Under the pieces are notes generated by a model. The model was not told the origin of the DNA. It saw only the letters and a program-made list of their open reading frames with translations, and searched no databases. Positions 37 to 10,028 of a stretch of DNA of 10,619 nucleotides are shown in pieces (the stretch's first letter is position 1; each line of letters opens with the position of its first letter). The DNA comes from Candidatus Hermodarchaeota archaeon (GTDB taxonomy: Archaea > Asgardarchaeota > Heimdallarchaeia > Hodarchaeales > Hodarchaeaceae), in the NCBI GenBank assembly GCA_048886185.1, contig JBHLKY010000048.1, positions 1 through 10,619 of the forward strand, written 5' to 3'. The translations under genes and the position numbers were made by a program.

Positions 37-232
37 CCCTTCTTTTTATTTAAAATCAGAGATGTTAATTAGACTATTTAGTTTTGCATTAAGTTCGCTT
101 TTTAATCCTTTACGAATTATTTCTCACATGATATCGTGAATAAATAAGGTTGAGAATTGAAATATAATTATAAGTGACTACGCTTCCTACCACCTTAGGA
201 AAATCAAACAACAATTAGTTGGAAATATAAAG

Positions 233-1114
233 ATGGTTCTTAGAAAGGTTAGTTTTCTAGAAGCAACTTCTTTATTAGACTCCAAAGTATATCCCGAAGG
301 GGCACATATGGATATAGAATTTGAATGTCTAGCCTTTGAAAGGTGTTCAGAGAAGAAAACATATGGCCCAGCGCCATACCGATTGTTACGAGTCACAGAC
401 AACCGCCATTCAGTAGTTAGAACGTTGTATATATGGGGTGACCAAGGATATACATATAATATGGATCTTGCCACCTCTCTTAAGAAAGGTGATAAATTAA
501 TAGTATCAAATCCCACAAGACCCCAAAATAATAGCTATTCTCGAGATGAATGGGGAAATAATGCTTTTTGGGTTAAACAGTGGGATGGTAGATCCTCAAA
601 GAAGGGATCACGACTAGCTATGAGAACTGAATCAAAAGAGACATGCAGTGTTTGTAGACGGCCTATAACATCAGAAGAGGAAATTATCTATTGTCCAACG
701 TGTCAGAATCCTTTTCACCCACCTCATTTTGCTGAAAGCCTCAAATTGACTGGAAAATGCCCAATTTGCGCAACAAAAAGCTCTTTCGATAAGATTATGA
801 GGGATATTACAGAGATATTCGATTTTCCAAAAAGTAACCATACCAATACCTTTGTATTAACACGAAAAACTGATAGATTTTACTTAAAAGATAATCATAA
901 GTCCTCAAAGTATGAAGTTATTCCATTAACTTCAACAACCAAAGACTTATTGAAAGAAGTCTGTTTATATATCAAAATGCGAACAGGAGCAGGAGTTAAA
1001 ATTCTATCTAAGTCAGGCCAACAGTTCATTGGTATTTCTTACCAAGATGGAGTTACCCTAGACTTGTTAGAAAAAATAATGCTACAATATGAACAGAACC
1101 TAATACCTGAGTGA
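233..1114 (+). CDS. Multidomain protein: N-terminal OB-fold-like domain, central RING/PHD-type zinc finger, unassigned C-terminal alpha/beta domain
   Basis: 293-aa ORF. Residues ~25-130 carry an RPA/SSB-like OB pattern (LLRVTD...VRTLYIWGD...LKKGDKLIVSN). Residues 138-179 read C-x2-C-x12-C-x2-C-x4-H-x2-H-x10-C-x2-C. Domain calls come from motif recognition only. Confidence 0.75.
   Translation: MVLRKVSFLEATSLLDSKVYPEGAHMDIEFECLAFERCSEKKTYGPAPYRLLRVTDNRHSVVRTLYIWGDQGYTYNMDLATSLKKGDKLIVSNPTRPQNNSYSRDEWGNNAFWVKQWDGRSSKKGSRLAMRTESKETCSVCRRPITSEEEIIYCPTCQNPFHPPHFAESLKLTGKCPICATKSSFDKIMRDITEIFDFPKSNHTNTFVLTRKTDRFYLKDNHKSSKYEVIPLTSTTKDLLKEVCLYIKMRTGAGVKILSKSGQQFIGISYQDGVTLDLLEKIMLQYEQNLIPE
644..769 (+). 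other. Cross-brace zinc finger with 8 ligands (C4-H2-C2), RING-variant/Prok-RING-like
   Basis: CSVC-x12-CPTC-x4-H-PP-H-x10-CPIC, counted directly from the translation (C138, C141, C154, C157, H162, H165, C176, C179). Confidence 0.85.
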
Positions 1115-1207
1115 ATAGGACTTGACAATAATATTTTTTTATAGATATTTTATATCTGAAAATAATATTTAGCTATTTGGTCTGTTTTCCCCCTTTTCCT
1201 TTCTATA

Positions 1208-1852
1208 TCACTCAAAACAGTCTTCAAATCGCTTATCCCAGTCAATTTCATCTTGGGATAGAACTAGTCTACCAATTATAGCGATAGCTGTTTGACGTTG
1301 CTTCATGTCCCAATTAGCTATGATTTCTGCCTGTTTCTCATCAGTATTCTTTAAAACTTTCCGAACTAGTTCACTTTCTCTGATAAATAGGTCTGCAATG
1401 AAATCGTTTAACATTTCTGAAGATTTTAATTTTTTATCACAAGTTTTCTCTATTAATTCACCAATGACGTCGAAAATCTCTTTTTTCTGGCGTTTCACCT
1501 CATAAGAGGTACTGATGGGGAAGAAAAGCTTAGCAGCTCTCATATAAAGGGTTTTGGTTCTAATTTTTTTCATATCTTCAGAATATACTCGCTTTCCTGC
1601 TTGAACAACAAGCTCCACGTCCTCTAGCTTCTTTAGATACCTATAAATGGTTTTTGATGATTTTTCCTGGTCAATAGCTTTTAATGATTCCTCTAATTCA
1701 TCCACTGTCATTGGTCTATTGCTATCCCTTAAAATGAGGAGAATTTGTGATAGATTCGAATCCAATAATGCCTTTTTTGCATTATCATCAGAAATCTCTT
1801 TCATTAGTGGTTGAGAGTAAGTTATAGCGTCAGTAAAAGGAGAATCAGGCAA
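1208..1852 (-). CDS. Winged helix-turn-helix (ArsR-like) transcriptional regulator with a helical C-terminal domain
   Basis: 214 aa, TTG start after an SD-like AGTGAT. The wHTH pattern QILLILR..RPMTVDEL...KSSKTIYRYLKKLEDVELV..AG is followed by a LYMRAAKLF motif resembling regulators I recall from Heimdallarchaeia. Confidence 0.85.
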   Translation of the reverse strand: MPDSPFTDAITYSQPLMKEISDDNAKKALLDSNLSQILLILRDSNRPMTVDELEESLKAIDQEKSSKTIYRYLKKLEDVELVVQAGKRVYSEDMKKIRTKTLYMRAAKLFFPISTSYEVKRQKKEIFDVIGELIEKTCDKKLKSSEMLNDFIADLFIRESELVRKVLKNTDEKQAEIIANWDMKQRQTAIAIIGRLVLSQDEIDWDKRFEDCFE

Positions 1853-4610: not shown

Positions 4611-4677
4611 TACTACTATAATATTGTGATAACCATCAGAATCAAGATTTATATTCGTACTCTAGCTTGTGGTTGTA
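4611..4677 (-). repeat. Displaced direct copy of 6858-6924 (part of repeat 4 of the surface-protein gene)
   Basis: Manual alignment gives 60/67 identical in the same orientation, including a 24-nt exact run TAATATTGTGATAACCATCAGAAT. It translates as TTTS*STNINLDSDGYHNIIVV versus TTTGQSTSVNLNSDGYHNITVV. Confidence 0.9.
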
Positions 4678-6095: not shown

Positions 6096-6275
6096 TCAAA
6101 GTTCCTGTCTTTTAAAGAATCGAACTAGACTAATTCCTAAGAATCCTAAAATCAATGATATCAAGAGAAACCCTGGGGCACTGATGTCGGTTGTACTACT
6201 GGTAATTGATCCAGTAGTGCTAGATGCTGGTATGGTACTGAATGGTTGAGTTGTAGTTATTGTAGAGGGTATAGA
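6096..6275 (-). other. S/T-rich linker and PGF-type C-terminal sorting/anchor signal
   Basis: SIPSTITTTQPFSTIPASSTTGSITSSTTDIS-APGF-LLISLILGFLGISLV-RFFKRQEL*, with PGF at 6176-6168. This tripartite layout matches archaeosortase-type signals. Confidence 0.75.
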
Positions 6276-9200
6276 GGATTTTATCATCCATATTGTGTCC
6301 TGGTTCGAGTGTCCTACTCTATCATAAGCTATTATGGTTATATTATAATAGTTAGTAATGTCTAACGCTATTGACATACTAGAACTGGTCGTAGTACCTT
6401 GAGATACATCATTTAGGAACACTTCATAGTAGTAAATCCCTGTACCTGTATCACTACCTGTCCATTCGATAATAATAATAGCTTGATTTGTTACAGTACC
6501 ATTTGCAGGGGAGGTAATACTGATCATTGGATCATAGATATCTCTTATCACCCAGATGATGTCCCAACTTGTGTTATTTGCATAATCATGGGCAACTATG
6601 GTAATATTGTGATAGCCATCATTAGTTAACAACACTAGCATGTTAGAGCTGGTTGTAATACCTTGAGACACCTCGTTCAGGAACAACTCATAATAGTCAA
6701 CGCCCGTACCAATATCACTGCCTGTCCATTCGATTATTATGCTGGATTGCTGTGTAATTGTGCTATTAGCAGGAGATATCACACTGATCATTGGAGTCGT
6801 CATATCTCGTCGAACCCAAATTATATTCCAGTTAGTATTACCAGCTTTATCATGAATTACTACAGTAATATTGTGATAACCATCAGAATTAAGATTTACA
6901 CTCGTACTCTGGCCTGTGGTTGTACCTTGAGATATTCCGTTCACAAAGACCTCATAATGGTCAACCCCAGCGCTTACATCGCTACCACTCCATTGAAGAA
7001 GAAGTGTGTTCTGATTGGTTAAGGTGTCATTGACTGGAGAGGTGATACTGATAGATGGGTTAACAATATCTCGTTGTACCCAAATACTATACCAATTTGT
7101 TCTTCCTATTTTGTCATAAGCCATTAAAGTGATATTATAATAACTATCAACAGTTAAGGACACTAACATGCTAGAGCTGGTTGTAGTACCTTGAGACACC
7201 TCGTTGAGGAACACCTCATAATGGTCAATCCCTGTCCCTGCATCACTGCCAATCCATTCGACAATAATAGTAGCTTGATTTGTTATAGAATCATTTATTG
7301 GAGAAGTGATACTTATCATTGGATTGTTAATATCTCTCACTATCCAGATGACGTCCCGATTGGTATTACCTGCATAATCATAGATTGTTACAGTAATATT
7401 GGAATAACCATCAACAGTTAAGGACACTAGCATGCTAGAGCTGGTCGTAGTACCCTGAGATATCTCGTTCAAAAAGACCTCATAATGGTCAACTCCCGTA
7501 TCTGTATCGCTACCTGTCCAATCAATAGTAATACTGGTCTGTTGCGTCACTGTGGCATTACTTGGTGATGTCACACTGATTGTTGGGACTTCTGTATCTC
7601 GTCGTACCCAGGTTGTGTTTGAAGTGGTGTTTCCTACCATATCATAAGCTGTAACGGTGATATTGTAATAGTCATCTGCAATTAAGCCCACTGACATAAG
7701 CGAATTGATTGTAGTGCCTTGAGATACCTCATTAAGGAACACTTCGTAATAGCTAATTTCTCCTCCCACAATATTCACACTCCATTCGACAGTTATAGCA
7801 GCCTGATTCGTTATCGTATTATTGGCAGGAGAACTGATAATAAGGTCAAAATAGGGTATTGTAAATTCTACTTTTGTGATAAATGCATCGACACCGCCAT
7901 TATTACTAGTATTAAGTGCACTAAAGGTGGGATAAGTAGTAGATGCGGTAAATCCCGTCACATAGCATTGATCATTGTTGGCAATGGCGAGGTCTCTTCC
8001 ATATTCATATGAATCGCCTTTAAGATAAGTGCTATACTTAAGGTTTTCACCAATTGAGTCTAATTTTGCTATAATTACATCTGTAACACCAGAATTGCCA
8101 TCCCATTCATCATCATAAGCCCATTTCATTGGAAAATTACTTGAATAGGTACCCCCAGTAATGTAGCAATTTCCATCAGTGTCAAGATCTATTGCCCAGC
8201 CAAAATCGGTTTGATCTCCTCCTAGAAATGTACTGAAATCAATTCCATTTCCTGTAGCATTGAATTTAGTTATAAAACAATCCGAATTTCCCCCGTACTC
8301 AGTTTGGTAAGCAGTTGAGGTGATAGGAAATGTTGTACTTGAACTTGTTTGGCCAGTCACATAGACACTCCCATCAGAACTGACCGCAATACTATAGGCA
8401 TTGTCAGAACTGGTACCTCCTAAAAAAGTACTAAATATTAAGCTGTTACCTGTTGGATCAATCTTCGTCACAAATCCATCAGTTTCAAATCCAGTTGGAC
8501 TTGCATGAGTGTCTTGAAAAGCATTAACTGTGGGAAAATTAGGTGAATAGGTTAATCCAGTGATATATGCATTACCTGCTGAATCAACAGCTATTGCCTT
8601 CCCGAAAGAATATTCATCATTGTTTCCACCAATATATGTACTATAGATTAGACCATCACCATTGGCGTTTAGTTTCGTAACAAAAATATCGCGATCACCC
8701 TTATTGCTATAAGTATCGTTATAGGCATTTTTTGTTGGAAAATCTGACGATTGTGTAAAACCATAAATATAACTATTCCCGTTATTGTCTATTGCTATAG
8801 CATATCCTTCATCTCTATCGCTACCACCCAATCCTGTACTAAATATCATACCATTACCAGTCGCGTTTAATTTTGATACAAATGCATCAGTACCATTACT
8901 ATAAGTACTCATATACCCTTTAGATCCAAATCCAGTAGGGTAAAAATCAGAAAGGGTGGTTCCTGTAATGAAGACATTCTCAGATTCATCAACAGCAATT
9001 CCATATGCATAATCAAGATTATCACCCCTTATATACGTACTGTAGATAATCCCCGTTCCTGTACTATTCAATTTAGTCACGAAAACATCAGTATACGCCC
9101 AATGACTAGTGTTCATAGCATTTTTAATGGGAAAATTAGTCGATGCTGTCGATCCTGTTATGTAAATATTCCCTGCACTATCAATTGCTATTGATTCACC

Positions 9201-10028
9201 TTTATCGTCTCCACTTCCGCCCCAGTAAGTACTAAATGACAGAATCAGTGGATCTATAATCAATTTCTTCGTTGAATCATATGAGGCTATTTTAAATCCA
9301 TAACTATTAGAAAAGCTTCTTTTTGGAACATACATTGAAATGAGTGATGAATCCTCTTGATACGTTTTAAGACCTTTATCTTGAAGAATTGGATTTTTCA
9401 GATAATTTTGAGAATAATAAGAGACAGATTGACTTTCTACCTCGAGAACCAATGAGTTATCAAGTTTTAGAGTGATTTGATCTGGATTACCACCAGGATG
9501 AACAATGAAATCATATTTTAATCCCTGAGTAGACATATAATACCGTAGATCGATGCTTGGATACAGATCTAAATACCAGATTTCAGCAAAACTTGGTACA
9601 TTACAGTATTCCTGGTTTTTATCAAAAAAGTTTGTTAGATGACCCATTTGTTTTATCGCAGTAGGATGAACTGTCGAAGCGGCTGGAAAATATATACTGA
9701 AACTTATACATTCCTCATTCTCCAGATAAATTTCATAAAACACTTTTGAGATGCCAAAACCTATTATATATGAGTCTCTTGAGTAATAGTACAAAAATTC
9801 TTCATTATTTAACTGGCCATTATTTTTGAGAAATCCTGAAAAGGGGATTGATGTATCCTCGTGAGAGGGGATGTTGTCTAATGTGGACGGGAATTTTTCC
9901 TCTTCATAACATATAGGATTATCAAAAAAGCCTATTTCACAAGGCTGACCATTTACAATTATTAAGCAGAGTATTGGAATAAGCAGAAAAAATCCAGTAA
10001 GAAATCTTTTTCTTATTTCATTCATCAC
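6096..10028 (-). CDS. Large secreted, C-terminally anchored surface glycoprotein with SBBP beta-propeller and Ig/FN3-like repeats
   Basis: 1310 aa. It has an N-terminal basic+hydrophobic signal, the conserved pre-SBBP domain (NNGQ...Y.DLYP.IDLRY...GLKYDFIVHPG.NP..I; DUF7948-like), 7 SBBP units, 6 tandem 88-aa beta repeats, an S/T-rich linker and APGF-TM-RFFKR. SD AGGAG lies upstream of GTG 10028 / ATG 10025. Confidence 0.9.
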   Translation of the reverse strand: MMNEIRKRFLTGFFLLIPILCLIIVNGQPCEIGFFDNPICYEEEKFPSTLDNIPSHEDTSIPFSGFLKNNGQLNNEEFLYYYSRDSYIIGFGISKVFYEIYLENEECISFSIYFPAASTVHPTAIKQMGHLTNFFDKNQEYCNVPSFAEIWYLDLYPSIDLRYYMSTQGLKYDFIVHPGGNPDQITLKLDNSLVLEVESQSVSYYSQNYLKNPILQDKGLKTYQEDSSLISMYVPKRSFSNSYGFKIASYDSTKKLIIDPLILSFSTYWGGSGDDKGESIAIDSAGNIYITGSTASTNFPIKNAMNTSHWAYTDVFVTKLNSTGTGIIYSTYIRGDNLDYAYGIAVDESENVFITGTTLSDFYPTGFGSKGYMSTYSNGTDAFVSKLNATGNGMIFSTGLGGSDRDEGYAIAIDNNGNSYIYGFTQSSDFPTKNAYNDTYSNKGDRDIFVTKLNANGDGLIYSTYIGGNNDEYSFGKAIAVDSAGNAYITGLTYSPNFPTVNAFQDTHASPTGFETDGFVTKIDPTGNSLIFSTFLGGTSSDNAYSIAVSSDGSVYVTGQTSSSTTFPITSTAYQTEYGGNSDCFITKFNATGNGIDFSTFLGGDQTDFGWAIDLDTDGNCYITGGTYSSNFPMKWAYDDEWDGNSGVTDVIIAKLDSIGENLKYSTYLKGDSYEYGRDLAIANNDQCYVTGFTASTTYPTFSALNTSNNGGVDAFITKVEFTIPYFDLIISSPANNTITNQAAITVEWSVNIVGGEISYYEVFLNEVSQGTTINSLMSVGLIADDYYNITVTAYDMVGNTTSNTTWVRRDTEVPTISVTSPSNATVTQQTSITIDWTGSDTDTGVDHYEVFLNEISQGTTTSSSMLVSLTVDGYSNITVTIYDYAGNTNRDVIWIVRDINNPMISITSPINDSITNQATIIVEWIGSDAGTGIDHYEVFLNEVSQGTTTSSSMLVSLTVDSYYNITLMAYDKIGRTNWYSIWVQRDIVNPSISITSPVNDTLTNQNTLLLQWSGSDVSAGVDHYEVFVNGISQGTTTGQSTSVNLNSDGYHNITVVIHDKAGNTNWNIIWVRRDMTTPMISVISPANSTITQQSSIIIEWTGSDIGTGVDYYELFLNEVSQGITTSSNMLVLLTNDGYHNITIVAHDYANNTSWDIIWVIRDIYDPMISITSPANGTVTNQAIIIIEWTGSDTGTGIYYYEVFLNDVSQGTTTSSSMSIALDITNYYNITIIAYDRVGHSNQDTIWMIKSSIPSTITTTQPFSTIPASSTTGSITSSTTDISAPGFLLISLILGFLGISLVRFFKRQEL
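6276..7856 (-). repeat. Six tandem 264-bp (88-aa) Ig/FN3-like repeat units
   Basis: Units approx. 7856-7596, 7595-7332, 7331-7068, 7067-6804, 6803-6540 and 6539-6276. Consensus P.ISITSP.N.T.TNQ..I..EW.GSD.GTG.D.YEVFLNEVSQGTTTSS.M.V.L..DGY.NIT..A.D..G.TN...IWV.RD, with N-x-S/T sequons in every unit. Confidence 0.95.
7869..9239 (-). repeat. Seven SBBP-type beta-propeller repeats
   Basis: Seven copies of (F/Y)ST..xG...D/E....IA.D..GN.Y.TG.T.S..FP followed by D.F.TK. Confidence 0.9.

Follow-up and report, generated by a model that had tools for sequence, protein, structure and literature searches.

A three-domain protein of Hodarchaeales-type Asgard archaea with a RING-H2-type finger between a predicted OB fold and an alpha/beta domain: a candidate component of the ubiquitin system

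Few known organisms are more closely related to eukaryotes than the Asgard archaea of the Hodarchaeales/Heimdall group, which carry a working-looking ubiquitin toolkit; to our knowledge almost nothing is known of the targets that are selected by their many RING proteins. A gene at the beginning of a contig of Candidatus Hermodarchaeota archaeon raises the question of whether one such protein selects its targets through domains fused to the finger itself. The preliminary description of this DNA had proposed that the gene encodes an OB fold joined to a RING-type zinc finger and a further domain, and that this single chain may couple binding of ssDNA or RNA to ubiquitin ligation. The window, by which we mean the whole stretch of 10,619 nucleotides that was analysed, represents the opening 10.6 kb of contig 48 in the genome G000, which measures 4.8 Mb and is 96% complete. 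The three-part protein, here termed OB-RING-X, is real and is encoded by a small group of Hodarchaeales-type Asgard archaea, and its layout of OB fold, RING finger and alpha/beta domain is a new domain architecture inside a known RING family. It thus presents a compact, soluble and single-copy candidate in which a RING-type finger lies between two recognisable, undescribed domains.

The coding sequence is an uninterrupted frame that specifies 293 amino acids (Table 1). A search of a collection of 5.8 billion proteins returned 25 homologues, the majority of which are full length and 45-83% identical; their source labels are Hodarchaeota, Heimdallarchaeota, Promethearchaeota or Thorarchaeota, and the start codon is common to them. 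Alignment of 20 full-length homologues (46-83% identical) established that all eight ligands of the finger and many residues within positions 1-115 are invariant, indicating that the gene is genuine and subject to selection. Genome searches detected the full-length protein in nine out of 22 members of its genus-level group and in no genome among 19 more distant relatives, while an exhaustive HMMER search across 1.84 billion cluster representatives recovered one full-length representative, five representatives of a paralogous family and approximately 220 further proteins that match at the finger only. Neither the OB domain nor the C-terminal domain occurs more than once in the genome of the window. 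The architecture matched no named family in the Pfam, defence-system and NCBIfam libraries, in agreement with the preliminary description, which had not recognised it as one.

Table 1. Positions of the features of the OB-RING-X gene, of its membrane-anchored paralogues and of further finger and ubiquitin-system genes (unprefixed positions are those of the window; L-numbered positions are counted within the named locus; C denotes a contig of G000)
Feature	Position	Strand	Basis or remark
Probable own promoter and 5' leader	118..232	+	Only upstream stretch that can be aligned with the nearest homologous locus (L024); putative promoter function
OB-RING-X coding sequence (P0001), stop codon included	233..1114	+	Open frame, 25 homologues, common start
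OB-fold domain (predicted), aa 1-133, new sequence family	233..631	+	
RING-H2-related binuclear zinc finger (predicted), aa 134-184, C4-H2-C2	632..784	+	Invariant ligands, family profile, Pfam, model
Flexible linker, aa 185-209	785..859	+	pLDDT below 50 in both models
Family-specific alpha/beta domain, aa 210-289, b-b-b-a-b-b-a	860..1099	+	
Oligo-T (1134-1140), then 6-3-6 inverted repeat AGATAT-TTT-ATATCT (1143-1157)	1134..1157	+	Read from the sequence
Membrane-anchored paralogues P0026-P0031	L039:6353-7660, L040:6380-7660, L041:3618-4958		
Ubiquitin cluster L027	G000 contig 14, 32001-48000		
Gene 1, UEV-like E2	L027:2236-2982		
Gene 2, Ras-family GTPase			
Gene 3, ThiF-type E1	L027:6617-7642		
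Gene 4, ubiquitin	L027:7714-7968		
Gene 5, KaiC-type ATPase			
Gene 6, Arf-like GTPase			
Gene 7, 149-aa protein			Without assignment
Gene 8, 112-aa C4H2C2 RING	L027:10163-10501		
Gene 9, metallo-beta-lactamase-fold protein			
Gene 10, canonical E2	L027:13163-13618		
Further C4H2C2-finger proteins (L028-L031)	C1:240316-242931, C6:74164-75141, C8:96031-97350, C10:202112-202981		

The N-terminal domain had been proposed to follow the strand order of RPA and SSB OB folds, and it is indeed modelled as a fold of this type. An AlphaFold2 model built from the 20-sequence alignment has a pLDDT of 80-90 over aa 1-133 and places strands at 28-34, 49-55 and 62-68, a helix at 75-82 and strands at 88-92 and 112-114, an order which corresponds to the canonical b1-b2-b3-a-b4-b5 five-strand OB barrel; the strings from which the strand order had originally been read (IEFECLAF at 28-35, LLRVTD at 51-56, RTLYIWG at 63-69, KKGD at 84-87 and LIVSN at 89-93) are all present and match the modelled strands and helix. 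When the N-terminal model was compared with the PDB by Foldseek, 16 matches were obtained at E <= 0.001, the majority of them OB-fold proteins, among which were Teb1, POT1, RPA, HIN, SSB and the anticodon domain of lysyl-tRNA synthetase, and a protein-language-model search pointed, as leads only, to RFA-like, POT1 and tRNA_anti-codon clusters (0.89-0.92). The structural predictions therefore support an OB fold of the RPA/SSB type. As the domain found no Pfam match at E up to 1, and a nine-sequence profile of it found nothing among PDB sequences at E up to 10, it appears to represent a new sequence family with an OB fold. Its invariant residues include the aromatic and basic Y49, R50, R63, W68, Y102, R104, F112 and W113, most of which are retained in the membrane-anchored paralogous family too, as well as the acidic E29, E31, D56 and D105. 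The orthologues differ in the net charge of the domain, which lies anywhere between +6 and -6 and makes it basic in some and acidic in others, which argues against a general nucleic-acid-binding surface. The OB domain of OB-RING-X has no detectable sequence similarity to the OB folds of RPA, Teb1, POT1, CTC1, SSB and MCM10, is accompanied by a predicted binuclear RING-type finger instead of a four-ligand ribbon and does not conserve its charge, and its nucleic-acid binding is only putative; nucleic-acid targeting by the protein is speculative and, in our estimation, unlikely.

The claimed eight-ligand C4-H2-C2 finger is present, as C138-x2-C141-x12-C154-x2-C157-x4-H162-x2-H165-x10-C176-x2-C179, with every ligand invariant among the 20 homologues; the eight ligands form four pairs whose spacing is of the RING type. 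Its RING character is only borderline when a single sequence is compared with Pfam, since the whole protein scored 21.2 bits with Prok-RING_1, 20 bits with zf-RING_2 and 18 bits with PHD, all below cut-off, and the excised finger just passed with Prok-RING_1 (29.5 bits, where the cut-off is 29.1). A considerably clearer assignment was provided by a finger-family profile composed of the finger of OB-RING-X and those of 24 small proteins, comprising little beyond the finger, that were recovered by the exhaustive HMMER search described above. All 25 fingers in this alignment have the C4-H2-C2 pattern, and Pfam assigned zf-RING_2 to 25 and Prok-RING_1 to 23 of the 25 members. Against the PDB the profile matched RING-H2 E3 ligases at 4e-9 to 1e-6, headed by RNF24 (3.8e-9), Arkadia (8.6e-9) and RNF165 (1e-8) and followed by RNF4, EL5, AMFR, RNF38, RLIM, listerin and synoviolin, whereas the first PHD finger, that of WSTF, appeared at 1.8e-3. 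The profile comparison thereby upholds the RING-type claim and supports membership of the RING-H2 superfamily rather than of the PHD fingers. The alignment with the eukaryotic RING-H2 E3s that are among its top matches (RNF24, Arkadia/RNF111, RNF165, RNF38 and EL5, at 4e-9 to 5e-7) spans all ligand positions and the central helix, which in the model of aa 130-293 lies at aa 163-173, directly after ligand 5, with a pLDDT of 85-90. There are nevertheless differences: in the eukaryotic proteins ligand 4 is the His of a C-x-H pair, whereas in OB-RING-X this His is replaced by Asn159 and Cys154, three residues before ligand 3, would substitute for it (C-P-x-C), ligand 6 is a His, and the helix Trp and linchpin positions are occupied by Ser and Ala, respectively. 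Fold searches with the model of aa 130-293, which were conducted in three ways, gave match lists taken up by the C-terminal domain. Searched as a single sequence, the finger had as its best match in the PDB (E 1e-3) chain a of 9fhl, aS34, which is a small zinc protein of the 30S subunit of Saccharolobus solfataricus (PMC11698992); in the finger-family profile search aS34 was found at 3e-5, far below the RING-H2 ligases at 4e-9.

Whether such a finger may be expected to activate an E2 was assessed from the residues that matter in srfp of Caldiarchaeum subterraneum, of which W58 corresponds to the position of W408 in c-Cbl. srfp is a small RING protein from a ubiquitin operon and is a proven working E3, in which ubiquitylation was abolished by the mutation I30Q and chain formation by W58A, while R69A also proved impaired (PMC5654768). 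Hennell James et al. described in srfp an extra cysteine similar to the ligand 3/4 variant of OB-RING-X (PMC5654768). The two proteins have in common a RING-H2-type binuclear finger, as represented by Prok-RING_1 (PF14446) and zf-RING_2 (PF13639), an extra Cys able to replace the canonical C-x-H pair, an Ile or Val after ligand 1 and a Pro after ligand 7. In contrast to srfp, OB-RING-X has 293 residues with an OB fold ahead of the finger and an alpha/beta domain behind it, lacks both the Trp and the Arg/Lys linchpin, and has a gene located apart from those for E1, E2 and ubiquitin. These positions were surveyed in 150 C4H2C2 fingers from 144 family representatives and in an orthologue group consisting of OB-RING-X and 23 orthologues. 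The position of srfp I30, two residues after ligand 1, is Ile or Val in 147 of the 150 family fingers, and is Val140 in OB-RING-X and Ile in two orthologues; the position after ligand 7 (C-P-x-C) is Pro in 148 and corresponds to Pro177, which is invariant in the orthologues. The helix position of srfp W58, by comparison, is Trp in 96 of the 150, and is Ser169 in OB-RING-X and Ser, Thr or Ala in all 24 members of the orthologue group, while the linchpin position after ligand 8 (srfp R69) is Lys or Arg in 79 and is Ala180 here, with Ala or Thr in the orthologues and Asp in one of them. Two features of active RINGs, Val140 and Pro177 at E2-contact positions, are therefore present and two, the E2-contact Trp of the helix and the linchpin Arg or Lys, are absent, so that of the three residues whose mutation affected srfp the orthologue group is without two; an invariant lysine, Lys182, lies two residues past Ala180. 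About a third of the family fingers are Trp-less, with E-[ATS]-[ILV]-K-[VL]-T-G-K-C-P as their common motif, and OB-RING-X belongs to this subgroup, in which it is unusual in that a basic residue is absent after the last Cys. Canonical activation of E2~Ub is thereby made less likely, but may still occur, as many eukaryotic RINGs likewise deviate at the Trp and linchpin positions. The absence of both residues raises two alternatives, namely that the finger is a silent RING which pairs with an active one, or that it is used outside the ubiquitin system.

The domain of about 100 residues that had been noted behind the finger is present and is located C-terminal to a disordered linker; it has a pLDDT of 83-93 over aa 210-289 in the model of aa 130-293. 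Foldseek returned nothing for this domain at E <= 0.001, and no sequence relatives were found outside the OB-RING-X family. A SUI1/eIF1 identity was considered and rejected, as profile-profile comparison with 12 Asgard aIF1 sequences gave a probability of 0.1%. The OB domain, on the other hand, recurs in membrane-anchored paralogues of some 360-450 amino acids, encoded by related genomes and absent from the genome of the window, in which an N-terminal multi-pass membrane region is followed by a short zinc ribbon (named L40E in one JGI record), an OB domain with 33-40% identity to that of OB-RING-X, and then a finger that differs from the one described here in having seven Cys and no ligand 6. 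Because these paralogues repeat the order of OB domain and then finger, the two domains appear to work as a module. Such a membrane tether fits a role of the OB domain in target recognition, and does not favour chromosomal ssDNA as its ligand. A VapBC-like PIN pair, located near a membrane-anchored paralogue at two loci, is the sole recurrent neighbour of this family and is uninformative.

The preliminary description had cited ubiquitin, E1, E2 and RING proteins as established in Asgard archaea, and genes for the first three were identified in the genome, where four proteins of the UQ_con type score above cut-off and two belong to the ubiquitin family. The E2 and UEV genes are located at C14:45202-45573, C1:295215-295682, C8:10436-10912 and C14:34641-34898, and ubiquitin at C14:39732-39929. 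Scanning of all open reading frames with a regular expression detected six C4H2C2 fingers. One of these is a RING of 112 amino acids contained within an 11-kb stretch that also includes a UEV-like E2, a ThiF-type E1, ubiquitin and a canonical E2 (Table 1), and the type of finger is thereby tied by context to the ubiquitin system, albeit through a paralogue and not through OB-RING-X itself. Small GTPases are interspersed among the ubiquitin genes of this cluster. Four further finger proteins encoded elsewhere in the genome are multi-domain proteins of 289-871 amino acids, in three of which the finger is C-terminal and in one of which (L031) it is near the N-terminus; the remainder of each found no match in Pfam. 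Related genomes of the class contain up to about 20 finger matches apiece, and E2 genes were found in all 41 related genomes searched, as a consequence of which co-occurrence of OB-RING-X with E2 is uninformative.

The OB-RING-X gene itself is monocistronic. At the nearest homologous locus (L024), where amino acid identity is 83%, the similarity extends over about 115 bp upstream of the gene, in which an AT-rich TATA-like stretch is found at about 160-175, and about 20 bp downstream, and is lost further upstream. The oligo-T run and inverted repeat behind the gene probably function, judging from their sequence, as a transcription stop; a different perfect palindrome occupies the position equivalent to the repeat in L024. 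The neighbours in the window encode a winged-helix protein, a lumazine-binding-like protein, DUF6144, YdjM, Fur and ferritin. Since the gene has unrelated neighbours in each genome (the window as compared with L024, L019 and L020), it appears to relocate as a one-gene unit. Status as a gene cassette would agree with such missing synteny but is not supported here, as a CCAACG-type site is absent from the window and a 24-nt repeat behind the gene, described below, is too rare in the genome to serve as a joint. The preliminary description had also proposed a survey of homologues and their neighbourhoods, and among the neighbours scanned against Pfam at eight homologous loci no recognised ubiquitin-system gene was found. 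Shared neighbours were likewise not found in the near clade by tblastn of the window genes or by all-against-all clustering of open reading frames from the eight homologous loci, while in the distant clade two flanking genes (c3 and c4) recur that have no Pfam match and whose homologues are located on other contigs in this genome.

The best explanation of these observations, tentative as it is and held at somewhat less than an even chance, is that OB-RING-X is a substrate-selecting component of the host ubiquitin system whose finger docks onto an E2 or onto an active RING. According to this proposal a soluble, stand-alone, three-domain member of the archaeal RING-finger family would bind two zinc ions through aa 134-184 in the RING-H2 manner, with the cross-brace that this entails; the finger would dock onto one host E2 or onto an active RING partner, and the OB fold, the C-terminal alpha/beta domain or both would hold the target, which may be a single-stranded nucleic acid, a nucleoprotein or a protein, for the transfer of ubiquitin. 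That the protein acts in the ubiquitin system at all, either as an E3 or as the partner of one, we regard as a serious yet uncertain possibility. A related but catalytically different role would be that of a silent RING, or pseudo-E3, which pairs with an active RING or sequesters a partner, and for which BARD1, MDMX and Bmi1 are eukaryotic precedents. In its favour, the ligand set is intact and invariant while non-canonical residues consistently occupy the Trp and linchpin positions, and the genome has four to five other family fingers, three of which have both the Trp and the Lys or Arg; a dimerisation element was however not identified, and more than one third of the wider family is also Trp-less, so that the family may use another E2 surface, and we consider this role improbable. 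A substrate-selecting component is similarly to be distinguished from the more specific model of the preliminary description, in which one chain acts as an E3 whose OB fold reads ssDNA, RNA or nucleoprotein and directs ubiquitin onto proteins at exposed nucleic acid. Membership of the RING family and a complete set of E1, E2 and ubiquitin lend moderate support to one part of this model, while the missing Trp and linchpin, an OB charge that varies from +6 to -6 and the lack of linkage to ubiquitin genes speak against it, and in its complete form it has little likelihood. The same concept, a RING coupled to the recognition of DNA or of a DNA-bound protein, is known from RFWD3 (with RPA) and HLTF (with HIRAN), and would apply here if the OB fold binds ssDNA; RFWD3 recognises RPA and has WD40 repeats, HLTF combines HIRAN with a SNF2 motor, and homology with OB-RING-X is limited to the RING. 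Were it true, a nucleic-acid-guided E3 of this kind would represent a prokaryotic forerunner, among the archaea closest to eukaryotes, of damage- or ribosome-linked ubiquitylation of the RFWD3, HLTF or listerin type, and its RING surface, in which both Trp and linchpin are missing, would be a non-canonical one.

Outside the ubiquitin system, the principal rival to a substrate-selecting role is a zinc- and OB-containing nucleic-acid-binding factor resembling MCM10 or archaeal RPA, which would hold single-stranded DNA or RNA and in which the finger would be a structural or interaction module. The OB matches include MCM10, which itself combines an OB fold with a zinc finger, together with RPA, SSB, POT1 and Teb1; the Trp and linchpin that E2~Ub activation requires are missing, the gene has no genomic link to ubiquitin genes, and the finger, as a single sequence, finds its best PDB match in aS34, a zinc protein of the archaeal ribosome. 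This reading is rendered rather unlikely, though less so than the pseudo-E3, by the clear homology of the finger family to RING-H2 ligases and the presence of a finger of the same type in the ubiquitin cluster, as well as by the unconserved charge of the OB domain, which showed sequence relationship to none of the nucleic-acid-binding OB families. Use of the finger as a PHD-type reader of a modified protein tail would agree with the spacing C-x2-C ... C-x2-C-x4-H-x2, with Pfam PHD scores of 18-22 bits (below cut-off) and with the name 'PHD finger domain-containing protein' that two homologues carry at NCBI. It is nonetheless very improbable, as ligand 6 is His and not Cys, the Trp that precedes ligand 7 in PHD fingers is absent, the long helix placed by the model right after ligand 5 is RING-like, and the family profile matched RING-H2 ligases at 3.8e-9 as against 1.8e-3 for WSTF. 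If the preferred reading of a substrate-selecting component holds and OB-RING-X is an E3, then RING ligases with several domains and substrate specificity, and possibly ubiquitylation linked to nucleic acids, predate eukaryotes; if it is not an E3, the RING scaffold has been put to other uses in these archaea. In either case two new domain families are defined, together with a large Trp-less subgroup of archaeal RINGs in which any E2 interface must differ from that of the textbook.

Other features of the window were observed alongside the OB-RING-X gene. The convergent gene at 1208-1852 (- strand) encodes a 214-aa winged-helix protein with a Pfam HTH_12/HTH_5 match, for which PADLOC gave weak matches to WYL (1.9e-6) and to Csa3-type CRISPR-associated regulators (1.8e-4); no cas genes were found in the window. 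This gene is flanked by same-strand copies, at 1126-1149 and 1850-1873, of a 24-nt AT-rich word, CAATWATAT-N6-ATAGATATT, and given that only five loose copies occur in the 4.8-Mb genome the word is probably due to chance or is a local terminator or promoter feature rather than a cassette joint. Further along, positions 6096-10028 (- strand) encode a surface protein of 1310 amino acids with SBBP beta-propeller repeats, DUF7948 and five tandem Ig-type (Big_7) repeats of 264 nt, of one of which a 67-nt orphan copy is located at 4611-4677.
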